A stretch of DNA of 37,487 bases from Candidatus Iainarchaeum sp. (GCA_043820655.1 JBDRDO010000092.1:1-37487); one strand, 5' to 3'. Numbered from the stretch's first letter, positions 1,796-23,589 are shown. A program made the numbers and translations. Notes: generated from the letters alone by a model not told the origin.

Positions 1796-1918
1796 AATCA
1801 AAAAAGGCAACCGCGGGTTTAAAAATGCAGGGAGGGCACATTTCCGGTGCGGCGGTTTTCGGCAGCCATTTCCCCACGGGGACATCTGCTTAAAACTTTC
1901 GTGCCATATTTGTCCATT

Positions 1919-5934: not shown

Positions 5935-6144
5935 ATGCCGACTACAACTATTCAAGTTGAGCACCCGACAAAGGAACTGCTGAACGAACTGAAAAAGAAC
6001 TTCAATTCAAAAACCTATGACGAGGTAATCCAGCGGCTCGTGAAAAAGAAAACGGGCTCGATGTTCGGGAAGCTTTCAAAAGGAAAAAAGGTCTCTGTCG
6101 CCGAAATGATGAAAGGGCTGCGCGATAAGCATGACCGGTTCTGA
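5935..6144 (+). CDS. vapB: VapB-like antitoxin
   Basis: ATG at 5935 inside ORF 5851..6144 (MPTTTIQVEHPTKELLNELKKNF...). The 69-aa product overlaps the downstream PIN gene by 14 nt. A 22-bp perfect palindrome lies just upstream. Confidence 0.65.
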   Translation: MPTTTIQVEHPTKELLNELKKNFNSKTYDEVIQRLVKKKTGSMFGKLSKGKKVSVAEMMKGLRDKHDRF

Positions 6145-6532
6145 CCTTTTTCTTGACTCAAGCGTGTGGCTTGGGTACTTCCTCGGGAACATCCAAAAGA
6201 CGAAAGAGATTATAGAATCGGAAGAAAACACCCTTTTCACGTCAATAATTTCCCTTCAGGAGATATGCAGAAAACTTAAGAAGTTGGGCAAAACCGAAAA
6301 GGAAATAACTGCCGCAATCGGATTTATCGAGGAAAACAGCAGCATAATTAACCTCAACAAGAAAATAGTGATAAGAGCCGCTGATTTCTGCGAAAAATAC
6401 GGGCTGCACGCGATGGACTCGCTTATTTATGCGAGCGCCATGAGTACAAATGCGGCATTTGTAACTGTCGACAAGGACTTTATGGGCTGCCCAAAAACGA
6501 TTATACTTGAGCGACCTGGGGCGGAAGTTTGA
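6131..6532 (+). CDS. vapC: PIN-domain toxin VapC
   Basis: 133 aa: LFLDSSVWLGYF (Asp in the first strand), SIISLQEI (Glu), HAMDSLIYASA and FVTVDKDF. This is a classic PIN layout. Confidence 0.85.
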   Translation: MTGSDLFLDSSVWLGYFLGNIQKTKEIIESEENTLFTSIISLQEICRKLKKLGKTEKEITAAIGFIEENSSIINLNKKIVIRAADFCEKYGLHAMDSLIYASAMSTNAAFVTVDKDFMGCPKTIILERPGAEV

Positions 6533-8610: not shown

Positions 8611-8895
8611 TCACAAATCCGGCTTAATCGCATGCAAAAAGTAGGAAATCCCGAGCAGTATCACAATAACCGTGAATATAAGGGGTGAGAGAGGCCCTGC
8701 AATGAAGGCAAGCACAGGGTGCAATCCAGAACCCATCAATGAAAAGAAAAAAACAGCAAATAGAATTACGGCAAGCGCAAGCACAGTTTTACTGCGCGAA
8801 AGTGAAACTTTCCTGAAATCGCCTAACAAAATCACACCACACAGCCCGCGCAAATTTCCCGCGCGTTCATATAAACTGCTCGTATTTAGTTGCAT
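8611..8895 (-). CDS. small hypothetical membrane protein
   Basis: 94 aa with two hydrophobic segments (TVLALAVILFAVFFFSLMG and LIFTVIVILLGISYFL). Confidence 0.4.
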   Translation of the reverse strand: MQLNTSSLYERAGNLRGLCGVILLGDFRKVSLSRSKTVLALAVILFAVFFFSLMGSGLHPVLAFIAGPLSPLIFTVIVILLGISYFLHAIKPDL

Positions 8896-9787
8896 TGAAC
8901 CTGTATAAAAACCTTCTTATCCTCAGCCCCTTAAAGCTGTACTTCTGCAAAACAGCCTTCCTTTCCCCCGAAAACTCGTCAAATCCGCGCCCCTGTGAAG
9001 GGTCTAAAATGTAAAACTTCCCCGCATGCTCGGTAATGACAAATGCATGTGTTTTCATATCATCAAGTTCGGCAATGACAACCTCTGCATTTTCATCCCC
9101 CAATGCAAACAGCAGGGTGCATAAAAATACCGCAAGGTCCTCATCATCCCCCATGCGATTGTTCACAATCTCCTTCGGGCTGAGCCAGAAGTTAAGCTCC
9201 ATGTCACTGTCAACATAATTCATTTCCCCCTGCACAAACCCAAACGTCTTCTTTGCAATCTCGCCATAATCGCGGGCAAAGACATAGCCCTGAGGCATAC
9301 GCCCCTGAATAATGCTTTGCACCGTCAAATCCTTTTCGTTTATGAGCGCCTTAAGCTCCCCCACAGTCTTCCTCTCGTATTCATTTATGAGGCCGGCATA
9401 GCGCGAAAGCAGCATTCTGTAAAGCTTAAATTGCATCTCCCTTGAGGCATCCTGTTCCCCCTCATTTCCCGTGCTTATTGTTGCGCACCCCTTAAGGGAG
9501 TTGCACTCCTTAACTGCACTAAGTAGTTTTGCCTTTGTTATTGCAAGCTCCTTTTTCATCCGCTGGTTATCATTTTCAAGTTCCGTGTAATTCGGCCCCT
9601 GTAATGATGCAAGCTGGTTTTTCAATTCGGAAATCTGCTCCCCCAATTGTTCCCTGCGCACGGAATCCTGCTCCGCACTAAGCTCCTGCTCAAGCTCCTG
9701 AATATTGCGCCAGATTGTCTGCTCCGCGGAAGTCTTGCTCAGCCGTTCCTCGTGGAGCCCGGAGCCCGAACCAGTAGGCAATGCCAT
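8867..9787 (-). CDS. coiled-coil protein with a C-terminal transglutaminase-like (papain-fold) domain, possibly inactive
   Basis: ATG at 9787. The N-terminus has heptad-like stretches (IQELEQELSAEQDSVRREQLGEQISELKNQLASL). The C-terminus reads GDDEDLAVFLCTLLFALG...HAFVITEHAGKFYILDP, which resembles the G-x-C-x-D...H...D transglutaminase core but has Asp where Cys is expected. Confidence 0.55.
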   Translation of the reverse strand: MALPTGSGSGLHEERLSKTSAEQTIWRNIQELEQELSAEQDSVRREQLGEQISELKNQLASLQGPNYTELENDNQRMKKELAITKAKLLSAVKECNSLKGCATISTGNEGEQDASREMQFKLYRMLLSRYAGLINEYERKTVGELKALINEKDLTVQSIIQGRMPQGYVFARDYGEIAKKTFGFVQGEMNYVDSDMELNFWLSPKEIVNNRMGDDEDLAVFLCTLLFALGDENAEVVIAELDDMKTHAFVITEHAGKFYILDPSQGRGFDEFSGERKAVLQKYSFKGLRIRRFLYRFNATKYEQFI

Positions 9788-9915
9788 ATTTATATTTATT
9801 GGCGCGGCAATCCTCAAAAAGGGTTATGTTTGCGGATATCTGCATTGTTCTGAATTTTTTTTATTTTTTTTGCGCGATTTTTAATTTTTTGTTTTCACGT
9901 GCGCAGGGGGGTGCG

Positions 9916-9925
9916 TTTTTATATT
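9916..9925 (+). promoter_or_regulatory. TATA-box-like element TTTTTATATT upstream of the pilin-like gene array
   Basis: It lies 31-40 nt upstream of the ATG at 9956 in an AT-rich divergent spacer. A second TATATATAA lies at 9934..9942. Confidence 0.4.
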
Positions 9926-9955
9926 ACAACTGCTATATATAACACAGTGAGTACC

Positions 9956-10435
9956 ATGCGCGCCGCAGTCCCAAAATGTAAAAACAGCAAAGGCCAGATG
10001 TCCCTTGAATACATGGTAATGAGCGCATTCCTTTTGCTTATAGTCGGCCTGCTCTTCACTTACGCTTACATAAATTATGACCACGCAATGAAGCTTGACA
10101 TGGCAAATTATGCTGTTGATTCCATTGCCGAGGCCGCAGACCAGGCATACGCACTCGGCACAGGCACTGTGCTTTTTGTTGATATAATCCTCCCCAATGG
10201 AATTGAGGGGAGCAGCGTTTTCGGCAAGGAATTCCAAGGGGGAAACGAGGTGCAGTACACCCTCAACATAATGGGCGTGCAGAACACGATTTTTGCCAAG
10301 ACAATCGCCGAACTTGATTCAGAAAACTCGGTGCTTCCTTACACAGGCATAAGCCACAAGATGAGGATAAGCATGGGGGACTGCGTGGACGGCAAGGTCA
10401 CAATTCTGGAAGTGGGGGAGGAATGCCCGCCTTAA
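9956..10435 (+). CDS. pilin-like protein with class III signal peptide (minor pilin 1)
   Basis: ATG at 9956: MRAAVPKCKNSKG|QMSLEYMVMSAFLLLIVGLLF. This gives basic residue, Gly, Gln and Glu at +5, followed by a hydrophobic helix. Confidence 0.75.
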   Translation: MRAAVPKCKNSKGQMSLEYMVMSAFLLLIVGLLFTYAYINYDHAMKLDMANYAVDSIAEAADQAYALGTGTVLFVDIILPNGIEGSSVFGKEFQGGNEVQYTLNIMGVQNTIFAKTIAELDSENSVLPYTGISHKMRISMGDCVDGKVTILEVGEECPP

Positions 10436-10444
10436 TAATTGCAT

Positions 10445-10876
10445 ATGGTGATATGGTGGAAAAAGGCAGAGTTACAATCTTGGAAGCCGGGGGTGAGTGA
10501 ATTGCGTGCGCAGGCATCTGTTGAAATAGTGATGGCAGTTGCCCTGATTATAATGCTTTTCCTAATGGTGCTGTGGTTTGTGAATGCAAGGGAAGGGGAT
10601 GTGCAGTTTGTTGAACAGCAGTATGACAACCAGCGCGCCTGCGGCAAGCTTTCATCAATAATCTCCTCTGCCTATGCGGCACGCTCCGGCACAGTGCTGA
10701 CAGCAACAATAGACCGCGATGCCAAAATAATTGGCAACAACATTCACATAGGCAAGGAGAGCAATTACTCCTGCACGTTTGTTGGCAGTGCGCAGGAAAA
10801 TCTTGAACTAAAGGCCGGCGGAATAAAGGCACGCAATGTCGGCGGTACGGTTATTGTGGAGAATCTGGGGGAGTGA
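10445..10876 (+). CDS. pilin-like protein with class III signal peptide (minor pilin 2)
   Basis: ...SELRA|QASVEIVMAVALIIMLFLMVLWF. The start is ambiguous (TTG 10439 or ATG 10445). Confidence 0.65.
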   Translation: MVIWWKKAELQSWKPGVSELRAQASVEIVMAVALIIMLFLMVLWFVNAREGDVQFVEQQYDNQRACGKLSSIISSAYAARSGTVLTATIDRDAKIIGNNIHIGKESNYSCTFVGSAQENLELKAGGIKARNVGGTVIVENLGE

Positions 10877-10880
10877 TGGC

Positions 10881-11429
10881 TTGCTTTGCAAAAAAGGGCA
10901 GGTAACGGCGCTTGATTTCATGTTCGGGCTTTTTCTGTTCCTTTTCATCGCCGCTTGGCTGTTTTCAATATGGTCGAGCAATTTAGGAGTTGCAATAACC
11001 GAACAGGGCTTTGAGCAAATGCGCGGAAAGGCATTCCAGGCGATGGATGTGCTTGTCCGCACAGGCGGAACCCCCCCTGACTGGGAAGGCGGCGCAGAGG
11101 GCGGCTGGGGGGATGGAGAAATGGACGGCATTGTTTCACTGGGGCTTGCATCCAAGGACCGTGTTATGATGCCTGACAAGCTTTCCGCATTTATCCTTGC
11201 GGGAGACCCGTCACTTAACGATATGCGCGATTACAACAGGACAAAGGTGATATTCGGCATTATGCAGTACGATTACTTCTTTAAATTGAAAACCCTTGAC
11301 CCTGTGCAAACATTTGAAACAGGACTGGCGCCTGGCGCAGCCGCAACAGCCGTCGCAGTAGAGCGCACTGTAATGTATGAGGGGGGTGAGGCAATTGCAA
11401 CGTTCACGATCCACTATGAGTTTGACTAG
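10881..11429 (+). CDS. pilin-like protein with class III signal peptide (minor pilin 3)
   Basis: A TTG at 10881, preceded by GGGGGAG with a 7-nt spacer, gives (M)LCKKG|QVTALDFMFGLFLFLFIAAWLF. The ORF-track start (ATG 10836) would add 15 aa and overlap the previous gene by 41 nt. Confidence 0.65.
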   Translation: MLCKKGQVTALDFMFGLFLFLFIAAWLFSIWSSNLGVAITEQGFEQMRGKAFQAMDVLVRTGGTPPDWEGGAEGGWGDGEMDGIVSLGLASKDRVMMPDKLSAFILAGDPSLNDMRDYNRTKVIFGIMQYDYFFKLKTLDPVQTFETGLAPGAAATAVAVERTVMYEGGEAIATFTIHYEFD

Positions 11430-13683
11430 CTCGGGATTTGCGCTTTCCCTTGATGCCCTGCTCGCGCTTGCGCTTGTCATAGGGATTCTAACATTTGGCA
11501 GGCTGATGGTGTTTGACAGCCAGAGCACAGGCAATATAAGCCAGCTGCAGACCCTCCAGCGCGGGGATGATGTATTCACAACCCTCTACAACTCAGGTTT
11601 CCTTCTTGACAAGCTTGACAGCAGCGGCTTTTATGACTCTACAGCGGAGGAGATACGCCTGAAAATGCAGGAAATGCTCCCGAGCAATATGGATTTTAAG
11701 ATTGCAATACGCAGTTACGGCGTTGACTTTGAGCAGTGCAAAGTGGGCCAGACATTTGATGATTGTTTCCCCGATACAGACATAATAACCGCGGGGGGTG
11801 CTCCGTCAAATGATGCGGAAGTGCTGCACGGCAGGCGCATGTTTGTCAAGGAAGAGCCGCCAGGGGAGTGTGATACTGAAAATTATTCTTCAGGCATAAG
11901 TCCGTTGCGCCGCCCAGGCATATTATCCTTCGCCGGGGAGGGTGATGAAATGTCCCTGAGCGTTGATATTGATTATGACGGTTATGGCAATGACGAAGAC
12001 CTTGAATGTGATGAGGATGTCTCGGTAACCCTTGGCATTACCGCCAACGGCCCGGGTGAAAGGGACCCTGTTGATGTAATGATTGTAATGGACCGTTCGG
12101 GAAGCATGGGTGATTACACTATGTTCGACATGAATGTCCTCACTGGGCAGTTCGGCGGCAGCGGCACAAGCAACTGCTCGTGCTGGTCCAACTGGTTCTG
12201 CACATATGGCTTGTTCGGCTGCCAGTGGGAATATTACAACTGGGAGGAGCTCGGTACTTTTGTTATAGAGAGTGAGGACTCATTCACGGCATCCTTAAAG
12301 TACAGCGGAGCCAGTGGCAGCCCGCCCCCCGCGCTGAAGCTCATAAGCCCGTCCGATGTTGAATATGGCGGTACAGGCCCCGATGTTGAAATAGATTATC
12401 CTGCGGAAACAGGCATCTGGACTGCATGGGGGTGGAGTGATGAAGAAATAGACTACAATGTGAGCAAGTACTTCAAGAAGCTTGACGTAGCGAAGGACGG
12501 CTCGCAGTATTTCGTTGACCTTGCGGAATGGCAGAATCAGGACCAATTAGGCCTTGTCTCCTTCAACCAAAGTGCAACACTTGACGAGCCGCTTACAAAT
12601 GATTTTGACGCGGTTAAGGATGCGATAGAGGCAATGAATGAAGGCGGCAACACCGCAACAGGCGACGGAATTTATGAAGCAACGGGCGAACTCATTAACG
12701 GAACAAACGCAAACCCCGATGCAATGAAATTCCAGGTTCTGCTCGGGGACGGCAAGTCGAACACCGGCAGCTCATCATCCTCCGCCGCACAGAATGCCGC
12801 TGACAACGGCATAATAATATACACAATCGGCTTCGGCGAGGATGTGAAGGATGACGGGGGTGAGGCGGAACTTAAAATGATTGCCGAAACAACCGGCGGC
12901 GAATACTATTACGCCGAGGACGAGGACGCACTGAAAGCTTTTTATGAGCTAATTTCGCAGCAAATAGGCACAAGTGCCGCAGGCGGGAATCCGATGGACA
13001 ATGTTGTTGTCACATTGCCGGTCCCGACCGGAATGATAGTAATAGACGAGGGGCAGGACGGTTACTTCCTGGATGGCGTGGGCGATGATGATAATTTCCT
13101 AATATTCACGCTGGGCGACTTTGATTACTATGAGGAATGGGCAGACACATATGTGGCGGTTTTCCCCTGCTCAAACAACGAGAACTGCGAAATAGCGGAG
13201 AAAACATTCCCTTCAGAGGGCAGTACAATAGAATACACGGATAAGGATGATACCGACCAGTCCGCGCCCTGGGATGTGACAGTAACAGTTAACTTCCTCT
13301 ATCGCGACCTCACTGTTGAAATAATAAAAGGCACAATAATCGGCAAAAATGAGGTCTACCTTGATGTTAACGCACAGAACATAGGTTTTCTTGACACCGG
13401 CGGGACAACCATCGAGTTCTACCTTGACTATTCCGGGGGAGATGGCGAGTTCCTTGGGAGTGTTGATGTTGATGCCTTTTGCGGCGGTGCGGGCGAGAAC
13501 TGCGAGGACAACTTCCAGATTTTCTATGATGTATATTTAAATAAGGAAGGCCTTATTTCTGCAATAATAAATGAGGGCATGGAAATCGGGGATTGCCCTA
13601 ATAATAATGAAGATAAAATAAATTGCACCGACGGGGCGGAGACCCAGTACTTTACCTTTGACTATTGGATGTGGTTTAAATGA
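11416..13683 (+). CDS. large pilin-like protein with vWA domain (intact MIDAS)
   Basis: ATG at 11416: MSLTSSG|FALSLDALLALALVIGILTF. The vWA MIDAS residues are DRSGS (12091..12105), GGNTATGDG and LLGDGKSN. Confidence 0.8.
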   Translation: MSLTSSGFALSLDALLALALVIGILTFGRLMVFDSQSTGNISQLQTLQRGDDVFTTLYNSGFLLDKLDSSGFYDSTAEEIRLKMQEMLPSNMDFKIAIRSYGVDFEQCKVGQTFDDCFPDTDIITAGGAPSNDAEVLHGRRMFVKEEPPGECDTENYSSGISPLRRPGILSFAGEGDEMSLSVDIDYDGYGNDEDLECDEDVSVTLGITANGPGERDPVDVMIVMDRSGSMGDYTMFDMNVLTGQFGGSGTSNCSCWSNWFCTYGLFGCQWEYYNWEELGTFVIESEDSFTASLKYSGASGSPPPALKLISPSDVEYGGTGPDVEIDYPAETGIWTAWGWSDEEIDYNVSKYFKKLDVAKDGSQYFVDLAEWQNQDQLGLVSFNQSATLDEPLTNDFDAVKDAIEAMNEGGNTATGDGIYEATGELINGTNANPDAMKFQVLLGDGKSNTGSSSSSAAQNAADNGIIIYTIGFGEDVKDDGGEAELKMIAETTGGEYYYAEDEDALKAFYELISQQIGTSAAGGNPMDNVVVTLPVPTGMIVIDEGQDGYFLDGVGDDDNFLIFTLGDFDYYEEWADTYVAVFPCSNNENCEIAEKTFPSEGSTIEYTDKDDTDQSAPWDVTVTVNFLYRDLTVEIIKGTIIGKNEVYLDVNAQNIGFLDTGGTTIEFYLDYSGGDGEFLGSVDVDAFCGGAGENCEDNFQIFYDVYLNKEGLISAIINEGMEIGDCPNNNEDKINCTDGAETQYFTFDYWMWFK

Positions 13684-16073
13684 ATTCGGCAAACAGGGCT
13701 GGAAAGGGCGCACATACACAGCGCGGCTTCACAATCTCGCTTGACGCCGTGTTTGCCCTCCTTATTGTTATTACATTCATAGGCTTCGGCAGGGTTGTGC
13801 TCTTTGAAACGCAGGGCACCGATACCCTTGCAAAACTGCAGGCAATCCAGCGCGCGGACGACGTATTCACAACAATGATAAACACCGGGAGCATTTGGGA
13901 ATCGCTGGATGAACCGGGCCTTACTACCGGCTCTATAGAGGATATATATGATAAGATGGATGCACAGCTCCCTGAAAATATTGACTTTATGATTACGATG
14001 CGCCTCTATGATTCAACAATCGATGCTGAATGCAGGTCTCAAAAGACATTTGAGAAATGTTTCTCCCCCTCTACATTGAACAAAAGCTGGCCTGAGATTA
14101 GTAAAAAGCCCACGCATGGAGACATATTGCACGGCAGGCGCGTGTTTGTAAAGAAGCAGCCGGAGCCGGATTGTACATATTGCGGCAATGGGGTGTGTGA
14201 TGATGACGAGGGCGAGAACTGCTCCACCTGCTCAGGAGACTGCCTTCCTACTGGTCTTGAGTGCTGTCTCGGCATTGTTTGCGCATTTGGTGAGACATGC
14301 GTTGATGATGTTTGCACGCCGCCGGGCGGCTTTGCCCCAGCAACATTCCCCTTTTTGGGCAGCAGTAAAATCGCGCACCTTGAGGGCGAGGGCATGAACC
14401 TTTTGCTCAGAACGGAACTTGCCCCGGAATACTCCCCCGCGGATGAGCTTGACTGCGATGAAACAGAGAACGTGCACCTTGAAATCGAGGCAAGCGCGGG
14501 AGAAGGGAGGGCGCCTGCGGACATAATGATGCTCCTCGACCGCGGCGAATTCATGGGCAGGTTTTTAGTGAAGGACTCTTTAATAAACATATCCCATTAC
14601 TGTCGTGACACGTGGGAGGTTGCAGGCACATTCTACAATGCGGATTTCCGTTCTTTCCAGATAGTTCCGGACGACCCCGCAATAGCGTTCCGCCTGACCG
14701 ACCCGAGTTCCGAAACGCACCTAGTTAATGAGGGCACTTTTATGAAGCCGACAGATATCGGCATCTGGACCGTGGAGTGCAGGAAAACAGGGGGCGGCAA
14801 GACAGTCAACTTTTCAAAATATTACCGGAACATAGAGGCGGAGCAGCACAGTGCAGTGGATTTTTTGAGCACAGCCAGCCTCAAGGAGCCGGACCAGGCG
14901 GGGCTTGTCACCTTCGGCACTGACGTAACCCTTGACGCCCAGCTCACGACGGATGAGGATGCGGTAATAACCGAAATCTGGGCAATTCCTATGCCCCCCG
15001 GCGGGGGGACGAACATTGCCGGCGCCATGAACATGGCTGTTGACGAGTTCAACACGCGCGGCGGCGAGGGGTATGTGCGGGTTGCAATACTTATGAGTGA
15101 TGCGGCGGCGGAGAAGGGGGATGTGGACGGGGCAATCGCAAACGCCGTGGCAAACAATGTTGTCTTTTACACGATTGCCGTGGGGGAGGGGTCTGATGAG
15201 GGCGCTTTGCAGGAAATCGCGCTCGGCACGAGCGGGGAGTTCTGGAAGATAACCGACACCGACACGCTCGATACTGTTTACGCCCTCATTGACATAGAGA
15301 TTGTGGAGCTCACAATCAACGGGAACAGGGTAGACAATCCGATTCTCTATATACCGATTCCCGCGGGGCAGACAGTTCTTACGCACCCGGATGCGGAAAT
15401 AGTCGAAGAACCTGGCTGCACGCACTGCCTCAAATACTCTAGCCTTGAGAGTCTCACGGTCGGGGAAATATGGGAGGCCGATTACTCAGTTGAATTCCCC
15501 TGCTCCGACCAGCACAGCTGCGAGAAGGCTGTGCAGGGCTTTCCCGAGGAAGGCACATTTATAGAATATATTGACATAGAGGAAAATCCCGGCAGGCTTG
15601 ACTGGCCGACGGAAGGGCCGCCCGAATACCGGGTTGTTGATTTCGACTCAAGGGACCTTAAGATTGAGTTCCTCGGCGGAAAGGTTATTGCGCCAAACCA
15701 GATTTATATGAATTTAGTGGTGGAGAACATAGACGACCTTGACACTGTGCCGACAGATGTGGTGTTTTCAAGGGGCGACACAATAGAGGGCGGCGGCGAG
15801 GAGGTGGGAAGCGCCCCGCTTGTTGCAGTGCCCGGCCTCTGCGGCCCGTTGAACCCGCCATGCAGTGACGGTCCGCAGTACTATTATGATGTTTACCTCC
15901 CCGCGGATGGCCGGATTTGGGCGCAGTTCGCGCTGGAGGATGGGGAATTGGTGAATGAGGAATGCCCGAAATACAGCCTTGCCATGCTGGATTGCTCTGT
16001 CGGACCGAGGGTGCAGTATTACACCCTGGAGTGGTGGCTGTGGCCTGCTTCGGAAACAACGGGGGGTAGTTAA
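13680..16073 (+). CDS. large pilin-like protein with vWA-like domain (degenerate MIDAS) and a Cys-rich insert
   Basis: MNSANRAGKGAHTQRG|FTISLDAVFALLIVITFIGF. It is a paralog of the previous gene (QAIQRADDVFTT vs QTLQRGDDVFTT; LHGRRVFVKK vs LHGRRMFVKE). DRGEF (14538..14552) replaces DxSxS. The start overlaps the upstream stop (ATGA). Confidence 0.8.
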   Translation: MNSANRAGKGAHTQRGFTISLDAVFALLIVITFIGFGRVVLFETQGTDTLAKLQAIQRADDVFTTMINTGSIWESLDEPGLTTGSIEDIYDKMDAQLPENIDFMITMRLYDSTIDAECRSQKTFEKCFSPSTLNKSWPEISKKPTHGDILHGRRVFVKKQPEPDCTYCGNGVCDDDEGENCSTCSGDCLPTGLECCLGIVCAFGETCVDDVCTPPGGFAPATFPFLGSSKIAHLEGEGMNLLLRTELAPEYSPADELDCDETENVHLEIEASAGEGRAPADIMMLLDRGEFMGRFLVKDSLINISHYCRDTWEVAGTFYNADFRSFQIVPDDPAIAFRLTDPSSETHLVNEGTFMKPTDIGIWTVECRKTGGGKTVNFSKYYRNIEAEQHSAVDFLSTASLKEPDQAGLVTFGTDVTLDAQLTTDEDAVITEIWAIPMPPGGGTNIAGAMNMAVDEFNTRGGEGYVRVAILMSDAAAEKGDVDGAIANAVANNVVFYTIAVGEGSDEGALQEIALGTSGEFWKITDTDTLDTVYALIDIEIVELTINGNRVDNPILYIPIPAGQTVLTHPDAEIVEEPGCTHCLKYSSLESLTVGEIWEADYSVEFPCSDQHSCEKAVQGFPEEGTFIEYIDIEENPGRLDWPTEGPPEYRVVDFDSRDLKIEFLGGKVIAPNQIYMNLVVENIDDLDTVPTDVVFSRGDTIEGGGEEVGSAPLVAVPGLCGPLNPPCSDGPQYYYDVYLPADGRIWAQFALEDGELVNEECPKYSLAMLDCSVGPRVQYYTLEWWLWPASETTGGS

Positions 16074-16074
16074 A

Positions 16075-17190
16075 TTGAACCATAATGGTGTGCTTTTTGC
16101 GTTCATGGCATTTCTGCTTGTGATGGTTGTGCTGAGCCTTGGCACAACAATAAGGGAGCAGAGAATGGAGCTTGAGGACAGCATAACATCAACCTCCGCG
16201 ATTGTGGGGGTTAGCGGCAAGTTCAACAACATAATTAATGATGTTGTTGCGTTTGACAAGAACAACTTTGTGAAGGATATACAGAAGCGCATCCTGCCGT
16301 TCAACTACTCCATTGACTATGACTTGATAAGGGTGCATCAGGAACTGCCTGTGAAAAGCGCGTATATAAGTAATTACTTTGATGTGATTAATATATACTC
16401 TATTTTCGTGGAGGATGAAAATCCCGAAACAACATATGACCTGATGGTTGTCGACACAAACACGCTCATTAACACAGACTGGCCGCCTCAGGGAAAACCG
16501 CCCCCGTCACAGCCCGATAATCCTCAGTTCATGATCTGGCCGCAGTGCCTGAAGCTTGTTATTGAGGCTGATGAAATAGGCGGCGTAATCCAGGATTCCA
16601 CATACTGGCGTTTCGAGCCGGGTCTTCCCCCCGACCCTAATAAACCCACTGAGGGCTGTGCATCCGCCTTTGACTCAGGCAGTGTTGACAGGTATGATGT
16701 CAACATGTCGTTAATGCAATATAAGGAGTACTACAACACTATTGAGTGTGAGTTCTTCGGCTGTCAGGCACCATGCGCCTGCCCCACTGCCGCATACGGC
16801 TACGGCACAGGCCTGCCCTACTTCAAGCTGACGATTGATGATTCGCGGTGCCAGCCAAATTGCAAGCTTGGCGGGCAGGCAACATTAGTAAGCAGCCACT
16901 ACGATCCGACAAAAGAAAACAGTGTGACAATATCCTGCGAAGCAGACCTCCTGACTCCGAATTGCTATGCAACCACGCCGATTACAATTGTGTTTGGCAA
17001 CGACACTGCCTATAATCCAAACAAGAACGATGTGTTCAGGATCGGCAACTCGGGCGGCACGGTTGACGTGGATATGAACGTGACCTTTGCCAGCCCCGTG
17101 GACCAGTTGCGCTCCATGGATTTCAATGTAAGGGTACACCGTGCGGACTTCAATATAACAATAAAGAATGTTGACGACCCGCCCGCTTAA
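16075..17190 (+). CDS. hypothetical pilus-associated protein with an N-terminal hydrophobic, pilin-like segment
   Basis: An in-frame TTG at 16075, 2 nt after the upstream stop, gives (M)NHNG|VLFAFMAFLLVMVVLSLG. The ORF-track start at 15955 lies inside the previous gene. The mature part is Cys-rich (ECEFFGCQAPCACP, CQPNC). Confidence 0.6.
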   Translation: MNHNGVLFAFMAFLLVMVVLSLGTTIREQRMELEDSITSTSAIVGVSGKFNNIINDVVAFDKNNFVKDIQKRILPFNYSIDYDLIRVHQELPVKSAYISNYFDVINIYSIFVEDENPETTYDLMVVDTNTLINTDWPPQGKPPPSQPDNPQFMIWPQCLKLVIEADEIGGVIQDSTYWRFEPGLPPDPNKPTEGCASAFDSGSVDRYDVNMSLMQYKEYYNTIECEFFGCQAPCACPTAAYGYGTGLPYFKLTIDDSRCQPNCKLGGQATLVSSHYDPTKENSVTISCEADLLTPNCYATTPITIVFGNDTAYNPNKNDVFRIGNSGGTVDVDMNVTFASPVDQLRSMDFNVRVHRADFNITIKNVDDPPA

Positions 17191-17334: not shown

Positions 17335-19590
17335 ATGGTGAATATAATGGATGAAAAAAAGAAAGTTGAAACAAAGAAGCCCGAAAAAAAGAAGCGCGGA
17401 ATCAGGCAGTTCCTGCGCGGGCTTTTCCGGTTCATTGGCAGGAAAGAGGAGAAGGCGCTTAAGGAAACACTGCCAACCAAACCAGTGGCAAGACCGCGCA
17501 AAAAGGAGGTAAGCCTTGCAAAGCAGCTCCGCCTCTGGAGAAAAAGGTCCGAGGAGCTTACAAAGCGCGTGAGGGTTTTGGAAAGGCAGCTCAGGAAGAG
17601 CGAGATTGCGCCAAGGCAGGCGCTTGGAGGGGTGCGTGTTGTTTACGCAACCGCGGGGCATGAGGACATTAACCTTGACAAGGAAATAAGGAAAACAAAA
17701 TCCCTTATGAAGCTGATGGAAATCGATTATCACAAGATGCGCGCCACGCCCGAACAGTTCAGGACAAAAATGCTGGAGTACAGGGAACGCATGCATCTCC
17801 TCCAGCTTGAAAAGGATGAGCTTGCGCGCGAGGGCATGAAAATTAGGCATGTTGGGGGCAAGATAAAGGAGATCGCGCTTAAGTCGCCAGAGGGCGGGCC
17901 CGAGATTGTTCAGGAGTTTGAACAGAGCATTAAAGCCCTGCCGCTTGAATGGAGTTCGGATTCCGGTGCTGAGCTTGCCGAAGTCGCATCAACAAGTGCA
18001 ATGCCACGCAGTGCAGGGGCAGTTCCTGCGAAACCCGGGAAAATGCCCCGTGCGAAAAAGGGCACGGGGAAATTTGTGGAAAGCCGCGCGCGCAAGGCAA
18101 GTGCGGTGAAAAAGCAGGCGGTTAAAATTAAGCCTATGGCAAAGCCGAAGCAAATGGCGCAAATGGCAAGGGCACTGCGGAAGCCCGTGCCTGTGCGGCA
18201 GACGCCGGTGCAGGCAAAGGCAAAACCCGCACTCAAAAAGCCATTGCCCGCACAGCCAAAACCCCTGCCGCAGAAGGCGGCACAGGCGCCAAGGAAGCCG
18301 TTCCCCGTGCCCGCAACGGAGCAGGCACCAGTGCCTGTCAGGATTGTCGAGTCAAAGCCGGCGGCTGTAAAGCCTGTGCCTGCCAAACCCGAACCCGCAA
18401 AGCCAAAACTGGAAAAACCGGCCGTGCCCTTAACTAAGCCCGGACTGCAGGCAGTCTCAAAACCGAAGACTGAACCGCCAGTGCTGGAAAAGCAGGAGAT
18501 TCCAAATGGTGGGCTGTCAAAAGGAATACTTTCAAAGATAAAATCCGCCACAATGTTGAAACCCGTGCGGAAGCCGGTGCCACTCCCGCCAAAACCTGCA
18601 CAACAGAAGCCCATATTGCCCAAGCCAAAGTCTCCGCCGCAGAAGCCCGCCATGCAGGCTGTAAAGAAATTCGAGGTTAAGGCTGAAAATGTTGTTGTTA
18701 AGGGCAAGGACGAGCCCGTGACCAAACCTGCGCAAGACCCTGACTCTAAGGATCACTCCTTTAAAATAATGAGCCAGCGCGAAAAAATTGCGCAGTGGGC
18801 CGAGGAAAGGCGCGCCAGGCTTAATCAGGATCGTGAAAAGCAGAAGCGCATTGCGGGGAATCTTGATGAAGGGACTGAGGAGCATGATGCTGCCCCTGCA
18901 ACGCCTGCCAAGGCAGACACTGTGCAGGAACCGCTTCCCAAACAGGGTGAGGCGCAGGAAAAAACAGGCAATTTACGCAGCCTTTTCAAGGGCAAGCCTG
19001 CAAATAAATCCGAGGAGGAGAGAATTGCCGGGCTTGAGGAAAGGATGACGGCTCTTATGCAAAAGCACAATGTTTCCAGCAATGAAGTGAAGCGCGAGGC
19101 AATGGCAATTGACGCACCTTCAGTTGTAGGGAGCTTCAACAAGCTTATAGGCCTGCTTGAATCCAAATATGAGGGAACCTCGGGGGGAATGTACAGAGGC
19201 GGGCGCGGAGGCGGGGCAGGCAGGGAATCCCTTCCAAATACAACTTCACTTGGGATGGACGCTATGCTGAAGAGGCAGGCAGCGGAAACCGCAACCCCCA
19301 CTGACTTAAAGAAAAAACGCATAGTTACGGACTTTGACAGGACACTTTCACTTGTAACCGAACGGGAGAAGATAAGAATCAGCGAGATTGCCTCGGAGCT
19401 TAATATTTCCTCCGGCAGGGTTGAGGAGTGCTGTGATATACTTGAACGCGGAAATTTAATCGAGATTCACTATCCCGCAATAGGCAAGCCCTATGTGCAG
19501 GTTGCAAATTATGCCGAACTCAGGGCCGCGCAGAAGGAACAAGAGAAGGATGCAAAGCCAAAAAAGAAGGGGGCTGGCAAGAATGTCTGA
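17335..19590 (+). CDS. Lys/Pro-rich low-complexity protein with N-terminal coiled coil, RGG stretch and C-terminal winged-helix domain
   Basis: 751 aa, with ATG at 17335 or 17347. About 250 aa are KPxP-type low complexity (KPVPVRQTPVQAKAKPALKKPLPAQPKPLPQK...), followed by GGMYRGGRGGGAGRE. The C-terminus reads RISEIASELNISSGRVEECCDILERGNLIEIHYP (HTH plus wing). I see no TM segment. Confidence 0.75.
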   Translation: MVNIMDEKKKVETKKPEKKKRGIRQFLRGLFRFIGRKEEKALKETLPTKPVARPRKKEVSLAKQLRLWRKRSEELTKRVRVLERQLRKSEIAPRQALGGVRVVYATAGHEDINLDKEIRKTKSLMKLMEIDYHKMRATPEQFRTKMLEYRERMHLLQLEKDELAREGMKIRHVGGKIKEIALKSPEGGPEIVQEFEQSIKALPLEWSSDSGAELAEVASTSAMPRSAGAVPAKPGKMPRAKKGTGKFVESRARKASAVKKQAVKIKPMAKPKQMAQMARALRKPVPVRQTPVQAKAKPALKKPLPAQPKPLPQKAAQAPRKPFPVPATEQAPVPVRIVESKPAAVKPVPAKPEPAKPKLEKPAVPLTKPGLQAVSKPKTEPPVLEKQEIPNGGLSKGILSKIKSATMLKPVRKPVPLPPKPAQQKPILPKPKSPPQKPAMQAVKKFEVKAENVVVKGKDEPVTKPAQDPDSKDHSFKIMSQREKIAQWAEERRARLNQDREKQKRIAGNLDEGTEEHDAAPATPAKADTVQEPLPKQGEAQEKTGNLRSLFKGKPANKSEEERIAGLEERMTALMQKHNVSSNEVKREAMAIDAPSVVGSFNKLIGLLESKYEGTSGGMYRGGRGGGAGRESLPNTTSLGMDAMLKRQAAETATPTDLKKKRIVTDFDRTLSLVTEREKIRISEIASELNISSGRVEECCDILERGNLIEIHYPAIGKPYVQVANYAELRAAQKEQEKDAKPKKKGAGKNV

Positions 19591-21094
19591 CAAACTGCTT
19601 AAGGAATACGAGCTTGAGTCCGAGGGCGTGAACCTGAAGATAAGCATTGTTCATGTGGAGGGCGAGTTTGTACGGAGTTACTTAGTGGATATTCCCGAAT
19701 TCGGGCCCGGCACAGAGGCCCTGCTGAAAAACCTGAAAAGCACGCTTGTGACCGACACATCAATAAAAACCGAGAAGATGCTTGATTCGCGCTTCATAGG
19801 TTCTCTGAAAACCGCGTTCAAGGCACGCGCGGGGAAAATACTTGAAAAGGAACTGCCGAATGTTGACGAGCGCACAAAGGAACTGCTTATTGGAATGCTC
19901 CTGCATGAAATGCTGGGCCTTGGCAGGATGGAATTCCTGCTTGCGGACGGCAACCTTGAAGAAGTAGTTGTGAATTCCTCAACAGAGCCTGCATGGGTAT
20001 ACCACAAGGAATTCGGCTGGCTGCGCACTAATGTCATTATAAGCAATGAAAGCGAAATACAGAATTTTGCAAGCATAATCGCAAGGCGCGTTGGCAAGCA
20101 GATAACTGTCCTGCACCCGCTCCTAGATGCCCACCTTATCTCAGGGGACCGTGCAAACGCCACATTATTCCCGATTTCAGGCCGCGGCAACACGCTTACA
20201 ATAAGGCGCTTCAGGCGCGAGCCATGGACTGTTGTTGATTTCATAACCAATAACACCGCAACCCCCGAGCTTATGGCATTGCTCTGGACTGCAATACAGT
20301 ATGAGCTTAATGTTATTGTAAGCGGAGGCACTGCCTCGGGAAAAACATCTTTCCTGAATGTGCTGATGCCCTTTATACAGCCCAATCACAGGATTGTAAG
20401 TATTGAGGACACCCGCGAGCTTTCCCTGCCCAAATTCCTGCACTGGGTGCCGATGACTACCAGGGAGCCCAATCCCGAGGGGCAGGGAGGGGTAAGCATG
20501 CTTGATTTGCTTATTAACTCGCTCAGGATGCGCCCTGACAGGATAATTGTCGGGGAGATAAGGCGGCAGAAAGAAGCCGAGGTAATGTTTGAGGCAATGC
20601 ACACAGGCCACAGCACCTACACAACTGTGCACGCAAACACAGCGGATGAAACAATAAGGCGTCTGATAAACCCGCCTATTGAAATTCCCGCAACCATGCT
20701 TGAGGCAACGCACATAAATGTTGTTATGTTCAGGAACAGGCGCCTCGGGTTAAGGAGGATTTTGCAGCTTGCGGAATTCATTCCCGAAAGGCGTTCGGAA
20801 TCCGAGGAAGTAATTAAGGCAAATGTTCTCTATCGTTGGAAGCCTGCAAGTGACCTTATTGAAAAGCACGCCGACAGCATCAGGCTTTTTGATGAGCTTT
20901 CCATGCACACAGGCATGACAATGAGCGAGATTTCACAGGACATGAAAAGCAAGAAGGGAATACTTGAGTGGCTTGTAAAGCACAAAATACGCGGCGTTAA
21001 CGATGTCGGGCTTATTATGGCAAAATATTATAGTGACAAGGAAGATATTCTGAAATTGGTTAAGCAGGACAAGAAACCGGATTTCGTGAGATAA
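19583..21094 (+). CDS. type IV pilus/archaellum-family secretion ATPase (FlaI/TadA/VirB11 superfamily)
   Basis: The ATG at 19583 overlaps the upstream stop (ATGTCTGA). Walker A is GGTASGKT (20324..20347), Walker B is PDRIIVGEIR, and the His box is TGHSTYTTVHAN. Confidence 0.93.
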   Translation: MSDKLLKEYELESEGVNLKISIVHVEGEFVRSYLVDIPEFGPGTEALLKNLKSTLVTDTSIKTEKMLDSRFIGSLKTAFKARAGKILEKELPNVDERTKELLIGMLLHEMLGLGRMEFLLADGNLEEVVVNSSTEPAWVYHKEFGWLRTNVIISNESEIQNFASIIARRVGKQITVLHPLLDAHLISGDRANATLFPISGRGNTLTIRRFRREPWTVVDFITNNTATPELMALLWTAIQYELNVIVSGGTASGKTSFLNVLMPFIQPNHRIVSIEDTRELSLPKFLHWVPMTTREPNPEGQGGVSMLDLLINSLRMRPDRIIVGEIRRQKEAEVMFEAMHTGHSTYTTVHANTADETIRRLINPPIEIPATMLEATHINVVMFRNRRLGLRRILQLAEFIPERRSESEEVIKANVLYRWKPASDLIEKHADSIRLFDELSMHTGMTMSEISQDMKSKKGILEWLVKHKIRGVNDVGLIMAKYYSDKEDILKLVKQDKKPDFVR

Positions 21095-21984
21095 TGGAGA
21101 AGCTGTCCATACCATTCAGCCCGTTTCCAGTGCCATTGCTGCTGATAGTGTCGGCACACCTTAAAGGCGTAGGGGAATCGATTTCAAGGGCATTTCCCTA
21201 CATTAAAATAGAGCTTAATCAGGCGGAAATCCCGATAAGCGCAAACGAATACGGCGCAATAATGGGATTTCTCTCGTTTTTTTATTTTGTTTTTGTTACA
21301 GCCTCTGTTTATTTCATAGGCTCGGTTTTCTTCCCCGAGAATGCGCTCATTGCCGCCCCGACAATCGGCGGGCTTTTCGCAATAATGATACTTGCGCAGT
21401 TGAGCGTATTCCCCAAAATAAAGGTGAAACGCAAGGTGCGCGACATTGAACGCAACCTAATTTTCGGTCTCAGGACCCTGCTTGTTGAGATAAAATCCGG
21501 CGTAACCCTTTTTGATGCAATAAACGTTGTAGCAGACGGCCACTACGGCGCGGTAAGCACGGAGTTTAGCAGGGCAATAGAAAGCATCAATACCGGCACA
21601 ACCGAAGAAGTCGCGCTTGAGGAAATAGCATCCCGCAACCCCTCATTGTTTTTCAGGCGCGCAATGTGGCAGCTCCTCAACGGCATAAAAACCGGCGGGG
21701 ACATAAGCGTTGCAATAACCGCAATGGTTGACTCCCTTGCAAAGGAGCAGAGGAACCAGGTGCGTAAATACGGCTCCTCACTGAGGATGCTGTCCCTTGT
21801 TTATATGATGCTTGGCGTAATAATTCCCGCACTTGGGCTGACATTCCTTGTAATCCTCGGCTCTTTCCCGCAACTTGATATCAGTGAATTAATGTTTTGG
21901 GGCCTGCTCATATTTCTTGTACTCGGGCAGTTTATGTTCCTCGGAATGTTAAAAGCAGGGAGGCCTAACCTTGTTGGGGACTAA
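21094..21984 (+). CDS. pilus platform membrane protein, single T2SS-F domain (TadB/EpdJ-like)
   Basis: The start overlaps the ATPase stop by 1 nt. It is polytopic, with a cytoplasmic helical bundle (LRTLLVEIKSGVTLFDAINVVADG...AMWQLLNGIKTGGDIS) typical of GspF/PilC/FlaJ-type domains. Confidence 0.85.
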   Translation: MEKLSIPFSPFPVPLLLIVSAHLKGVGESISRAFPYIKIELNQAEIPISANEYGAIMGFLSFFYFVFVTASVYFIGSVFFPENALIAAPTIGGLFAIMILAQLSVFPKIKVKRKVRDIERNLIFGLRTLLVEIKSGVTLFDAINVVADGHYGAVSTEFSRAIESINTGTTEEVALEEIASRNPSLFFRRAMWQLLNGIKTGGDISVAITAMVDSLAKEQRNQVRKYGSSLRMLSLVYMMLGVIIPALGLTFLVILGSFPQLDISELMFWGLLIFLVLGQFMFLGMLKAGRPNLVGD

Positions 21985-22978
21985 TTTTTACAGGAAGGTC
22001 GCCTCGTTAATGCCCTCCAAGATAATCCGTGCATTCAAAACAGAGATGGGCTATCTGGGGATAGATATAAGTGAAAGGCGCTTTGTGGGGTTTCTTCTTG
22101 TTTTCGGGCTTGCGCTGAGCGTGGGAATTTCGCTTAACACATACCTCTTTTTCGGCATAAGCTTTATTGTTGCCTTCCCGTTTTTCTTTGTGCTTTTTGT
22201 TGCCGGCACATACCTCTGGCTGAGCATTGCCGCGGAATCAAAGGGCAAGTTTGTTGAGACAATACTTCCCGATGCGCTGCAGCTGATTGCCTCAAACATA
22301 AAGGCTGGCTTAACAACTGAGCGTGCATTGCTTGTTTCCGCAAGGTCTGAATTCGGGCCTTTGGAAATAGAACTGCGCGCAACTGGCAGCAGGATAATGG
22401 CGGGCATGCCTCTTGAACAGGCGCTTTCATACATCCCGACAAAAATAAAATCCAAAACATTGGAGAGGCTTATCTGGCTGATTTCAAAGGGAATTGAAAG
22501 CGGCGGGCAGATTGCGGATTTATTGACGCACCTTGCCGATGATTTAAGGGAGCAGAACAGCATAAAGGACGAAATCGCGGCAAACATTTCCATGTATATT
22601 ATGCTGATATTTTTCTCCGCGGCAATCGGCGCGCCCATGCTGTTCGGAATAAGCAGTTTCATTGTGCAGATTCTTGTGGTTCAGACCTCGCAGATACCGC
22701 AGTTTGATGCATCTATGTTTGAGGGCACCGGGGGCGGCGCCGGCCTTGCCGGGCTTGCGGGAGGTGGTTCGGTAATTTCCGCGGACTTTGTTATATTCTT
22801 CGCAATGGTGAGCATAGTTGTCACATCTATATTTGCCTCGCTCACAATAGGGGTTATAAACACAGGCAAGGAAAAGGGCGGCGCGAAATTCATACCCGTG
22901 CTCCTATCCATCTCATTTGTGCTGTTTTTCGTTATAAGGGAAGTCCTTGCAATGATGTTCGGCAGTTTGCTGATGTAA
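21971..22978 (+). CDS. pilus platform membrane protein, single T2SS-F domain (TadC/EpdK-like)
   Basis: ILPDALQLIASNIKAGLTTERALL...LIWLISKGIESGGQIADLL plus TM segments. The start is either TTG 21971 (14-nt overlap) or ATG 22010. Confidence 0.85.
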   Translation: MLGTNFYRKVASLMPSKIIRAFKTEMGYLGIDISERRFVGFLLVFGLALSVGISLNTYLFFGISFIVAFPFFFVLFVAGTYLWLSIAAESKGKFVETILPDALQLIASNIKAGLTTERALLVSARSEFGPLEIELRATGSRIMAGMPLEQALSYIPTKIKSKTLERLIWLISKGIESGGQIADLLTHLADDLREQNSIKDEIAANISMYIMLIFFSAAIGAPMLFGISSFIVQILVVQTSQIPQFDASMFEGTGGGAGLAGLAGGGSVISADFVIFFAMVSIVVTSIFASLTIGVINTGKEKGGAKFIPVLLSISFVLFFVIREVLAMMFGSLLM

Positions 22979-23127: not shown

Positions 23128-23589
23128 TTATGTTGCTGGTGCTGTTCCTTTACAGCTGGCTGACGATTCCTTAGCGAAGCCGTCTGCATCCGTGTATCCG
23201 AATGTGAAGTTGACAGTGTATGCCCCTCCTGCCACAAATGTGTGGTTGGGTGCGACGGTCAGTACGAAATCAGCCTGCACTTCGTCGTTCGCTGGAATGC
23301 TAGAGTATGACTTTGTTTCGGTGAGGTCGCCTGTTGCAGTTATTAGAACTGTTGTCAGGTTCTCGCCTGTCATGTTAGTGAAGATTATTGAGAATATATC
23401 ACCGGTAGCCGTGCCACTAAGGTTCTGCTTCTTAATCGGCAGCTTTGACGCACCTGTGCATCCCTCCGCGCCAATCTGCGTCGGATTAATCAGGAACACC
23501 AGTGCAGCAATCGCAATAACAATCACGATCAAAGCCCAGCCGTAGGTCATCAAATACTCCAGCGCTGATTGTCCTTTATTGCCAAACAT
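23128..23589 (-). CDS. major pilin candidate with class III signal peptide
   Basis: MFGNKG|QSALEYLMTYGWALIVIVIAIAALVFL is a textbook archaeal prepilin N-terminus. It has a GGAGGG RBS, its own TATA box and an oligo-T terminator. There are five N-x-S/T sequons. Confidence 0.9.
   Translation of the reverse strand: MFGNKGQSALEYLMTYGWALIVIVIAIAALVFLINPTQIGAEGCTGASKLPIKKQNLSGTATGDIFSIIFTNMTGENLTTVLITATGDLTETKSYSSIPANDEVQADFVLTVAPNHTFVAGGAYTVNFTFGYTDADGFAKESSASCKGTAPAT

Follow-up and report, generated by a model that had tools for sequence, protein, structure and literature searches.

Two adjacent genes of a groundwater archaeon of the Iainarchaeota (Diapherotrites, DPANN) probably encode minor pilins of modular build that belong to an archaeal type IV pilus of Epd/Tad-like type. 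The genes lie in Candidatus Iainarchaeum sp., GCA_043820655.1 JBDRDO010000092.1:1-37487; this whole stretch of 37,487 nucleotides (nt) is called the window below, and all positions refer to it. The first gene (11377/11416-13683) and its product are called P1, and the second (13680-16073) and its product P2. Each protein has a prepilin-like N-terminus, and its domain of the von Willebrand factor A (vWA) type is split by an insert. The metal ion-dependent adhesion site (MIDAS) is intact in P1 and degenerate in P2. By analogy with Streptococcus sanguinis PilB, Caulobacter CpaL and the Myxococcus Tad tip complexes, we infer that both would act as adhesins at the pilus tip. The features of the two genes are as follows; a slash within a sequence marks a putative cleavage position.

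11377..13683, + strand: P1, modular vWA pilin-like protein with an intact MIDAS, 768 amino acids (aa), or 755 aa from the ATG at 11416
11434..11520, + strand: P1 class III-like motif G/FALSLDA and hydrophobic N-terminal helix; motif conserved in the family
12091..12105, + strand: P1 MIDAS DRSGS; D, S, S, T and D all canonical
12115..12477, + strand: P1 beta-rich insert from the MIDAS loop to helix alpha1 (aa 234-354 in the 755-aa numbering, by DSSP of the model)
12478..12981, + strand: P1 vWA core after the insert (aa 355-522), from Pfam, the PDB sequence search and hhalign to a TadG-like protein (99.4%)
12982..13683, + strand: P1 C-terminal beta-sandwich region, ending in the aromatic strand QYFTFDYWMWFK (model strands 527-754)
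13680..16073, + strand: P2, diverged paralog of P1 with a degenerate MIDAS, 797 aa
14035..14124, + strand: dimorphic patch in the N-terminal module of P2, within a wider divergent stretch (14015-14128)
14172..14324, + strand: Cys-rich insertion private to P2, CTYCGNGVCDDDEGENCSTCSGDC...DDVCTPP (aa 165-215), absent from P1 and other homologs
14538..14552, + strand: degenerate P2 MIDAS DRGEF (Ser to Gly, Ser to Phe); three of the five MIDAS positions kept

Tandem split-vWA proteins with an intact and a degenerate MIDAS

P1 and P2 are encoded on the same strand, and their open reading frames (ORFs) overlap by ATGA. They had been described as tandem vWA paralogs in an earlier note on this DNA, and a full-length BLASTP alignment (30% identity, E 1e-97) confirmed this. 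The same note read P1 from the ATG at 11416. The ORF holds, but the start is probably another: judging by the sequence, the ATG at 11377 is the most likely start, because its basic leader MRGVRQLQRSRST... resembles the leaders of homologs (MREVKQLLK, MKELRQLLH) and the leader from 11416 is without positive charge.

PF00092 was matched at residues 372-510 of P1 (profile positions 34-172, E 3.7e-19, 70 bits) and at residues 403-533 of P2 (E 4.1e-16, 60.1 bits), the cutoff being 23.8 bits. In both proteins the match was confined to the part after the first strand, which a split domain would lead one to expect; the long insert after the first MIDAS strand that had been proposed for both is thus seen in the Pfam matches, and for P1 also in the structural model. 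A PDB sequence search matched vWF A3, integrin I domains and PTMP1, and the coverage of P1 was the post-insert vWA core alone. NCBIfam gave sub-threshold vWA matches alone for P1 and P2. No Pfam match at E up to 10 was obtained for the insert, the N-terminal 215 aa or the C-terminal regions.

In P1, the MIDAS Thr lies in NTATGDG (12649-12669) and the Asp in GDGKSN (12745-12762), which complete the motif DxSxS...T...D, and metal binding is predicted from this motif. P2 keeps the Thr in GGGTNIA (15000-15020) and the Asp in SDAAAE (15096-15113), and it appears to be a vWA-fold protein without a canonical MIDAS, the fold being indicated by the Pfam match and the full-length identity to P1. The P1 tail is YFTFDYWMWFK followed by the stop codon, and that of P2 is YYTLEWWLW(PASETTGGS) followed by the stop codon. 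All of the motifs and aromatic tails quoted in the earlier note, including the intact P1 site and the degenerate DRGEF, were found where it had placed them, and the ortholog of P2 is degenerate too.

An AlphaFold2 model of P1 was built on a 21-sequence alignment; residue numbers follow the 755-aa numbering. The mean predicted local distance difference test score (pLDDT) was 81. In the model, an N-terminal helix (residues 12-59) is followed by a small alpha/beta region to residue 154, which contains four strands (92-154) and the invariant Cys108, Cys117 and Cys152, and then by a low-confidence linker. After further strands at 179-210, the vWA strand beta1 (219-226) ends in the MIDAS loop, and helix alpha1 (355-367) follows the insert. 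The pLDDT is at least 90 over most of residues 355-522, and beta-sandwich domains occupy residues 527-755, with the aromatic tail modelled as the last beta-strand. The tail was rejected as an archaeosortase or other sorting signal, since it has neither a hydrophobic helix nor a basic tail and was modelled as a strand.

When the P1 model was compared with PDB structures by Foldseek, the top matches were Mfa5 (type V pilus tip; 5.9e-15), SpaC (1.1e-14) and PitA (8e-14). The S. sanguinis type IV minor pilin PilB (1.5e-9), RrgA (5e-9), ArnB and integrin beta subunits were also matched, and the probability was 1.00 to many vWA structures. The model therefore predicts a Rossmann-like alpha/beta vWA fold in P1. 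The vWA domains read from the sequence in the earlier note are thus recovered by Pfam in both proteins and by the model and fold search in P1, with pilus-tip adhesins at the top.

A conserved family with a variable insert

A word-index homolog search with P2 gave two matches, and the family was seen via an exhaustive profile search, which returned 704 proteins at E up to 1e-30, about 90 of them near full length. About 30 species-level genomes contain full-length relatives; almost all of these genomes carry the label Candidatus Iainarchaeum, Diapherotrites or uncultured archaeon, and a few that of Micrarchaeota. The NCBI name of the proteins is 'vWA domain-containing protein', with nothing further. 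P1 and P2 are on the same strand and in the same operon as a T2SSE ATPase gene and two T2SSF genes, an arrangement found in about 25 loci. The size of the two proteins, earlier considered unusual for archaeal pilins, is unusual against characterised systems but not within their own DPANN lineage, where relatives of 650-1260 aa are the norm. In a sublineage with vWA pilins of 1050-1210 aa (L014, L016, L017, L022, L023, L025-L027), the second 'small' pilin reaches about 540-580 aa. This expansion to about 550 aa means that at least two minor pilins are modular in some Iainarchaeota. A contig that carries a typical family member (L021, JBDRPR010000028.1) was binned as 'Bacteroidota bacterium', and the near-identical strains of the window, L083 and L084, are labelled 'Candidatus Micrarchaeota', whereas the closest complete relatives are labelled Iainarchaeum; these odd labels probably reflect inconsistent binning or labelling.

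The insert is 123 aa long in P1 and 91 aa in P2, which is the family's shortest (range 91-597 aa, median 294 aa). The earlier note had pointed to variability of the inserts among relatives as something to look at, and the insert is indeed the most variable region, with a mean pairwise identity across the family of 0.17 versus 0.40 for the vWA core. In longer relatives it is made of LVIVD beta-propeller repeats. A split vWA domain as a general trait of relatives was rejected, as the Methanolobus, Thermoplasmata and Firmicutes proteins matched by the family profile have the core directly after beta1. Because these outgroup proteins are without the insert, it is a trait of the Iainarchaeota family that a small number of other archaeal proteins share. 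Lying beside the MIDAS face, the variable insert may be the determinant of specificity. The tail consensus [QE][FY][FY]x[LIV][DE]YWxWxK is family-wide, and 77 of the 92 family members have a canonical residue at each of the five MIDAS positions.

Pilin-like N-termini and the case for a membrane anchor

The N-terminus of P1, read from 11377, is MRGVRQLQRSRSTMSLTSSG/FALSLDALLALALVIGILTF, and that of P2 is ...GAHTQRG/FTISLDAVFALLIVITFIGF. They do not resemble ordinary Sec signal peptides; the whole family shares the pattern [KR][GA]-F-x-[FL]-[ST]-x-[DE] with some 22 hydrophobic residues after it, and this was seen in more than 60 relatives. In sequence, both proteins fit the pattern of a short charged leader ending in G or A, with about 20 hydrophobic residues at the extreme N-terminus.

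Several observations weigh against minor pilins with a metal-dependent role. Even with E values of up to 10 allowed, neither P1 nor P2 nor their first 215 aa matched PF04021, PF13400 or an NCBIfam prepilin model. If cleavage follows the Gly (G/F-A-L-S-L-D), the acidic Asp or Glu is at +6, not +5. The N-terminal 160 aa of P1, modelled alone (pLDDT 80.6), formed one continuous helix (12-60), and Foldseek of this isolated part against PDB gave no significant match, to a pilin fold or otherwise (best E 3.8). When the N-terminal module was compared by hhalign with the pilin families of the four neighbouring genes and with the probable major pilin, the probability was 2-44%, and the alignments lay mostly over the hydrophobic helix. 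A prepilin peptidase (peptidase A24) gene was not found among the window ORFs scanned. The predicted template modelling score of the whole P1 model was 0.43; the domains are therefore reliable and their mutual arrangement uncertain. Furthermore, a degenerate MIDAS occurs in four single-copy genes that occupy the standard operon slot (P0063, P0084, P0071, P0066). On this ground, MIDAS loss as a mark of duplicated copies alone was rejected: the loss is recurrent and not tied to duplication, and the conserved role of the family is therefore independent of the metal site.

Some of these points would be accommodated if P1 and P2 were membrane-anchored accessories of the pilus machine, held by a permanent signal-anchor, with the vWA ectodomain stabilising or anchoring the base of the pilus or acting as an adhesin beside it. 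The lack of a pilin fold match for the N-terminal head, the weak profile similarity to the neighbouring pilins, the displaced acidic residue and the missing class III and TadG N-terminal Pfam signatures speak for such an anchor, as does a hypothesis that TadG anchors the pilus to the membrane (cited in PMC4858521). Nevertheless, we consider it unlikely. The residues around the putative cleavage site (basic, G/A, F, S/T, D/E) are conserved far beyond what a plain anchor needs, and the vWA gene is always found among the minor pilin genes. TadG is present in pilus fibre preparations, and CpaL has been modelled at the tip (PMC11870444). Moreover, tip minor pilins such as GspK typically have no Glu5, and CpaL has no acidic residue there either (PMC11870444); the +6 position is therefore compatible with a tip pilin. 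We thus favor minor pilins, with leaders that would be cleaved and helices that would enter the filament.

Duplication of the vWA pilin gene and variation in P2

Two copies of the gene are present in the window genome, in L083 and L084, and in L001 (JAZDEL010000008.1), and a single copy is present at all other loci. In a distance tree, the P1 orthologs form one clade, and P2 and the second copy of L001 form its sister clade. This indicates one duplication in the common ancestor of the window lineage and L001. Identity between the window and L001 orthologs is 52% for copy 1 and 39% for copy 2. The second copy of L001, an intact ORF of 732 codons, has DMGNP at the MIDAS and has also lost the Thr and the Asp, so that one of the five positions is left; the MIDAS serines are gone in both second copies. 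The housekeeping gene order of the window is syntenic with that of L001.

The nucleotide identity of P1 to L083 and L084 is 100%. P2 is likewise identical to them except for one patch of about 90-115 nt at 14015-14128 (aa ~112-150), which has the conserved Cys pair on one side and HGRR on the other and where about 35% nt divergence and a 6-nt indel were found (L083 5247-5427; L084 5081-5261); outside it the strains are identical over kilobases. The ratio of nonsynonymous to synonymous substitution rates (dN/dS) of P2 versus these strains was 0.57, driven by this one patch. The window sequence occurs in metagenome runs from groundwater and biofilm (X1-X5). One groundwater run contained the two alleles of 14035-14124 at equal depth (6.7 and 6.5), with an assembly bubble there, and three further runs (X3-X5) showed the alternative allele at the patch edges. 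Among the remaining variant sites in the metagenomes, most are in P2 and one is in P1. The patch was rejected as the target of a diversity-generating retroelement, because the changes are not adenine-specific and no reverse transcriptase was present among the ORFs scanned. Import by recombination, or balanced variation of a loop that is exposed, is more likely.

The Cys-rich module private to P2 reads CGNGVCDDDEGENCSTCSGDC... Its CGNGxC(D/E)...C..(D)C motif recurs twice (29039, 29186) near the N-terminus of the ORF at 28730-30793, which encodes a putative surface protein of 687 aa with a C-terminal transmembrane helix. The motif looks like a mobile extracellular module common to surface proteins of the source organism.

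P2 is an intact ORF that retains all of the structural Cys, the class III motif and the C-terminal strand, and we infer that it is not a dead copy but a second tip adhesin, independent of metal and with a different ligand. The two proteins might instead be obligate partners in a heterodimeric head, with P2 in a structural role and without a ligand of its own. The genes are adjacent and overlapping and therefore probably co-translated, the pair has been kept in two diverged genomes, and one set of small pilins serves both. However, about 28 related species have a single copy in the same slot, so the scaffold needs no partner, and the localised diversification and the new module of P2 fit ligand contact better than a passive role; such a heterodimer is thus somewhat less probable still than the membrane anchor. 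That P2 is a decaying duplicate on its way to a pseudogene, with MIDAS loss reflecting relaxed selection alone, is very improbable: the faster divergence of copy 2, the reduced MIDAS of P2 and its ortholog, and the greater number of polymorphic sites and the dN/dS value of P2 point that way, but its 797 codons and the 732 codons of its ortholog are intact after long divergence, the conserved Cys, class III motif, vWA core (Pfam 4e-16) and C-terminal strand are retained, a Cys-rich module has been gained, translational coupling is kept on both sides, and the variation is focused in a two-allele patch, neither spread nor disruptive.

Organization of the pilus operon

The gene order around P1 and P2 was obtained from iterated searches with each window protein. 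It is kept in 24-32 loci (about 30 Iainarchaeota species), and the ORFs overlap or abut. The conserved order is a transglutaminase-like gene, three small pilin genes, the vWA pilin gene, a gene for a protein of about 340 aa, a Lys/Pro-rich protein gene, the ATPase gene, two platform genes and the major pilin gene. The corresponding genes of the window are listed below.

8867..9817, - strand: transglutaminase-like/CEP76-peptidase-like protein, divergent to the pilin operon (PF24656 1.2e-7, PF04473 8e-5); 25 loci
9956..10435, + strand: minor pilin 1, class III signal MRAAVPKCKNSKG/QMSLEY (KG/Q); weak PF04021
10439..10876, + strand: minor pilin 2, RA/QASVEI...; family in 30 loci at the same position
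10836..11429, + strand: minor pilin 3, KKG/QVTALDF...; family in 32 loci, its gene always the immediate upstream neighbour of the vWA gene
16075..17190, + strand: pilin-like protein of 371 aa with the short leader MNHNG/VLFAF... and no acidic residue; 32 loci, always directly 3' of the vWA gene
17335..19590, + strand: Lys/Pro-rich protein with a weak C-terminal winged-helix match; 26 loci
19493..21094, + strand: type IV pilus assembly ATPase, FlaI/TadA-like (PF00437 9.7e-35)
21094-21984 and 21971-22978, + strand: two platform genes, one T2SSF each (PF00482 5e-16 and 1.8e-17)
23128..23589, - strand: probable major pilin MFGNKG/QSALEYLMTYGWALIVIVIAIAAL... (KG/QSALEYLMTYGWALIVIV), at the same position downstream of the platform genes

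The [KR]GQxxxEY motif of minor pilin 1 is conserved in about 30 loci, and TATA-like AT-rich elements are present upstream of this gene at 9913-9945. The minor pilin 2 family was related to that of minor pilin 1 with an hhalign probability of 90.6%. The 371-aa protein starts with TTG at 16075, two bases past the P2 stop; it had no Pfam match at E up to 10 and no NCBIfam match, and the small pilins had no NCBIfam match. The product of 17335-19590 is a Lys/Pro/Ala-rich protein of 751 aa, and its ORF overlaps that of the ATPase by about 100 nt. In NCBIfam, the ATPase matched FlaI (1.8e-79) and TadA (1e-55), both below their cutoffs. The two single-T2SSF genes suggest an Epd/Tad-like layout of the locus; according to Denise et al., a platform split into two genes is a trait that unites archaeal Epd-like and bacterial Tad pili (PMC6668835). 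The product of 23128-23589 is the likely major pilin because its N-terminus is nearly invariant in about 21 loci. In most loci this gene is on the strand opposite to the operon. Transglutaminase-family peptidases have been linked to clade-1 archaeal type IV pilus loci (PMC4858521).

Other genes of the window include two (28730-30793 and 30738-32018) for large secreted or membrane-anchored proteins with repeated immunoglobulin (Ig)-like segments and a faint MG2 match. They are followed by four KaiC-like/DUF7504 ATPase genes at 32015-33211, 33200-33871 (- strand), 33999-34760 and 34762-35592; KaiC-family ATPases are predicted regulators of archaeal type IV pili (PMC4858521). PIN-domain and ribbon-helix-helix proteins, likely toxin-antitoxin elements, are encoded at 1020-1382, 1379-1924 (- strand) and 6131-6532, among genes of glycolysis and CoA metabolism (PGK, GAPDH, cupin-type GPI, CoaBC and CoaE).

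Comparison with known vWA adhesins and pilus systems

A close parallel is that with TadG and its ortholog CpaL, vWA minor pilin-like proteins of bacterial Tad pili (Caulobacter crescentus, Aggregatibacter). The comparison with TadG made in the earlier note is apt, as CpaL/TadG proteins have been published with a pilin module and a split vWA domain. In architecture alone, P1 and P2 share with them a prepilin-like N-terminus, a long helix and a vWA domain that a beta-rich insert interrupts behind the MIDAS strand (PMC11870444). SpaC, the top structural match of CpaL (PMC11870444), is high among the matches of P1. In addition, small minor pilins are encoded alongside, and each of the machine's two platform genes has a single T2SSF domain. 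The bacterial protein P0025, which is TadG-like (PF13400 and VWA), was aligned with the P1 vWA core by hhalign at 99.4% probability and has its own insert of about 70 aa at the same site. On the other hand, P0025 has PF13400, which is not detectable in P1 and P2. The P1 insert directly follows DxSxS, whereas in CpaL about 40 further residues of the first vWA segment come after the MIDAS motif. P1 and P2 have an extra C-terminal beta-sandwich region of about 230 aa and the conserved aromatic tail, and their system is archaeal and without a secretin; beyond the vWA core, the likeness seen is one of layout. Tad pili are thought to derive from archaeal Epd-like pili (PMC6668835), and Tad tip complexes have been described in Myxococcus (PMC12075869).

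In S. sanguinis PilB (PDB 7B7P), too, a pilin carrier is joined to a vWA effector, whose functional MIDAS has protruding arms on its flanks. This vWA pilin is a proven adhesin with a presumed location at the tip (PMC8179133). Unlike P1 and P2, PilB has a canonical bacterial class III signal (IPR012902), Glu5 and a solved pilin fold, is about 460 residues long, lacks both C-terminal domains and a large insert right behind DxSxS, and belongs to a bacterial, ComM/type IVa pilus-like system. The best structural matches, the sortase-pilus and type V pilus tip adhesins SpaC, RrgA, PitA and Mfa5, resemble P1 in having a vWA domain with inserted arms by the MIDAS and Ig-like beta-sandwich domains. However, they belong to unrelated assembly systems; the likeness is one of convergent or shared domain architecture and not of membership. 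The P1 and P2 C-termini (...DYWMWFK and ...WWLWPASETTGGS) are without LPXTG or a transmembrane tail, and the proteins have no lipoprotein-type processing signal.

The likeness to PilY1 suggested in the earlier note is that of an analogue at most. PilY1/PilC is a large tip-associated vWA adhesin that works with four or five assembly-priming minor pilins (PMC11870444), and many P1 relatives pair the vWA domain with a beta-propeller (LVIVD). However, PilY1 itself is no pilin: it has a Sec signal, lacks the N-terminal pilin helix and carries a C-terminal propeller from another family. The PilY1 domain was absent in Pfam scans of P1 and P2. With the Epd pili of Methanococcus maripaludis (EppA-dependent, clade 1), the window system shares small pilins with Gln at +1 (KGQ...E), two platform genes, the association with a transglutaminase-family gene and large adhesin-like proteins predicted at the tip (PMC4858521); the large proteins there carry DUF2341, not vWA (PMC4858521).

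In the survey of Makarova et al. in 2016, which did not cover DPANN, vWA proteins appear as cytoplasmic regulators (ArnB) or via bacterial TadG (PMC4858521), and a global survey of modular pilins covered bacteria (PMC8179133). We found no paper on vWA pilins in Iainarchaeota or other archaea. The kind of protein is thus known; new are its occurrence in archaea, its N-terminal module and C-terminal domains, the insert in the form of a propeller or sandwich, and the tandem pair with an intact and a degenerate MIDAS.

Proposed mode of action

In the mechanism we propose, P1 and P2 would each consist of a prepilin-type (class III) leader and long hydrophobic helix, a small Cys-bridged head, a vWA domain with the MIDAS-flanking insert, a C-terminal beta-sandwich and an aromatic end strand, and the leader and helix would dock them into the pilus core. 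The vWA pilin would form a complex with the three small KGQ-type pilins and the protein of about 370 aa that primes assembly on the ATPase and platform. As this complex would start the filament, the vWA pilin would end at the pilus tip. There, P1 could bind a ligand on a surface or another cell via Mg2+ or Mn2+ at the MIDAS, with its specificity set by the adjacent insert. P2 arose by one tandem duplication in a narrow sublineage, in which the scaffold was kept, the two MIDAS serines were lost, the insert was shortened, a Cys-rich module was gained and evolution was fast. It may alternate with P1 or sit beside it.

Significance

To our knowledge, how DPANN archaea attach to surfaces and partner cells is largely unknown, and we know of no member of the Iainarchaeota in culture. 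The locus provides a concrete, conserved candidate for DPANN attachment, namely a type IV pilus operon in which a vWA protein of adhesin type is the largest subunit. It overturns no expectations and is not surprising in kind. Nevertheless, it would extend from bacteria to archaea the idea of the modular pilin, a carrier pilin with an effector domain, which is experimentally established for S. sanguinis PilB (PMC8179133) and proposed for Caulobacter CpaL (PMC11870444). A TadG/CpaL-like design in an Epd/Tad-type machine also bears on the proposed archaeal origin of Tad pili.

One extension of these ideas, which we offer as a speculation with the odds against it, is that the split-vWA tip pilin of Tad systems (TadG/CpaL) is no bacterial invention but descends from an archaeal Epd-like component that survives, in diversified form, across the Iainarchaeota and serves them as the chief organ of contact. 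Specificity for the partner would then be set by the insert, be it a small beta-sandwich or an LVIVD propeller, and the duplicated, metal-independent copy of the window lineage, with a loop that has two alleles in the population, would be a second, switchable tip. Within the family, the P1/P2 pair constitutes a natural experiment in which a putative vWA tip adhesin occurs with and without its MIDAS.

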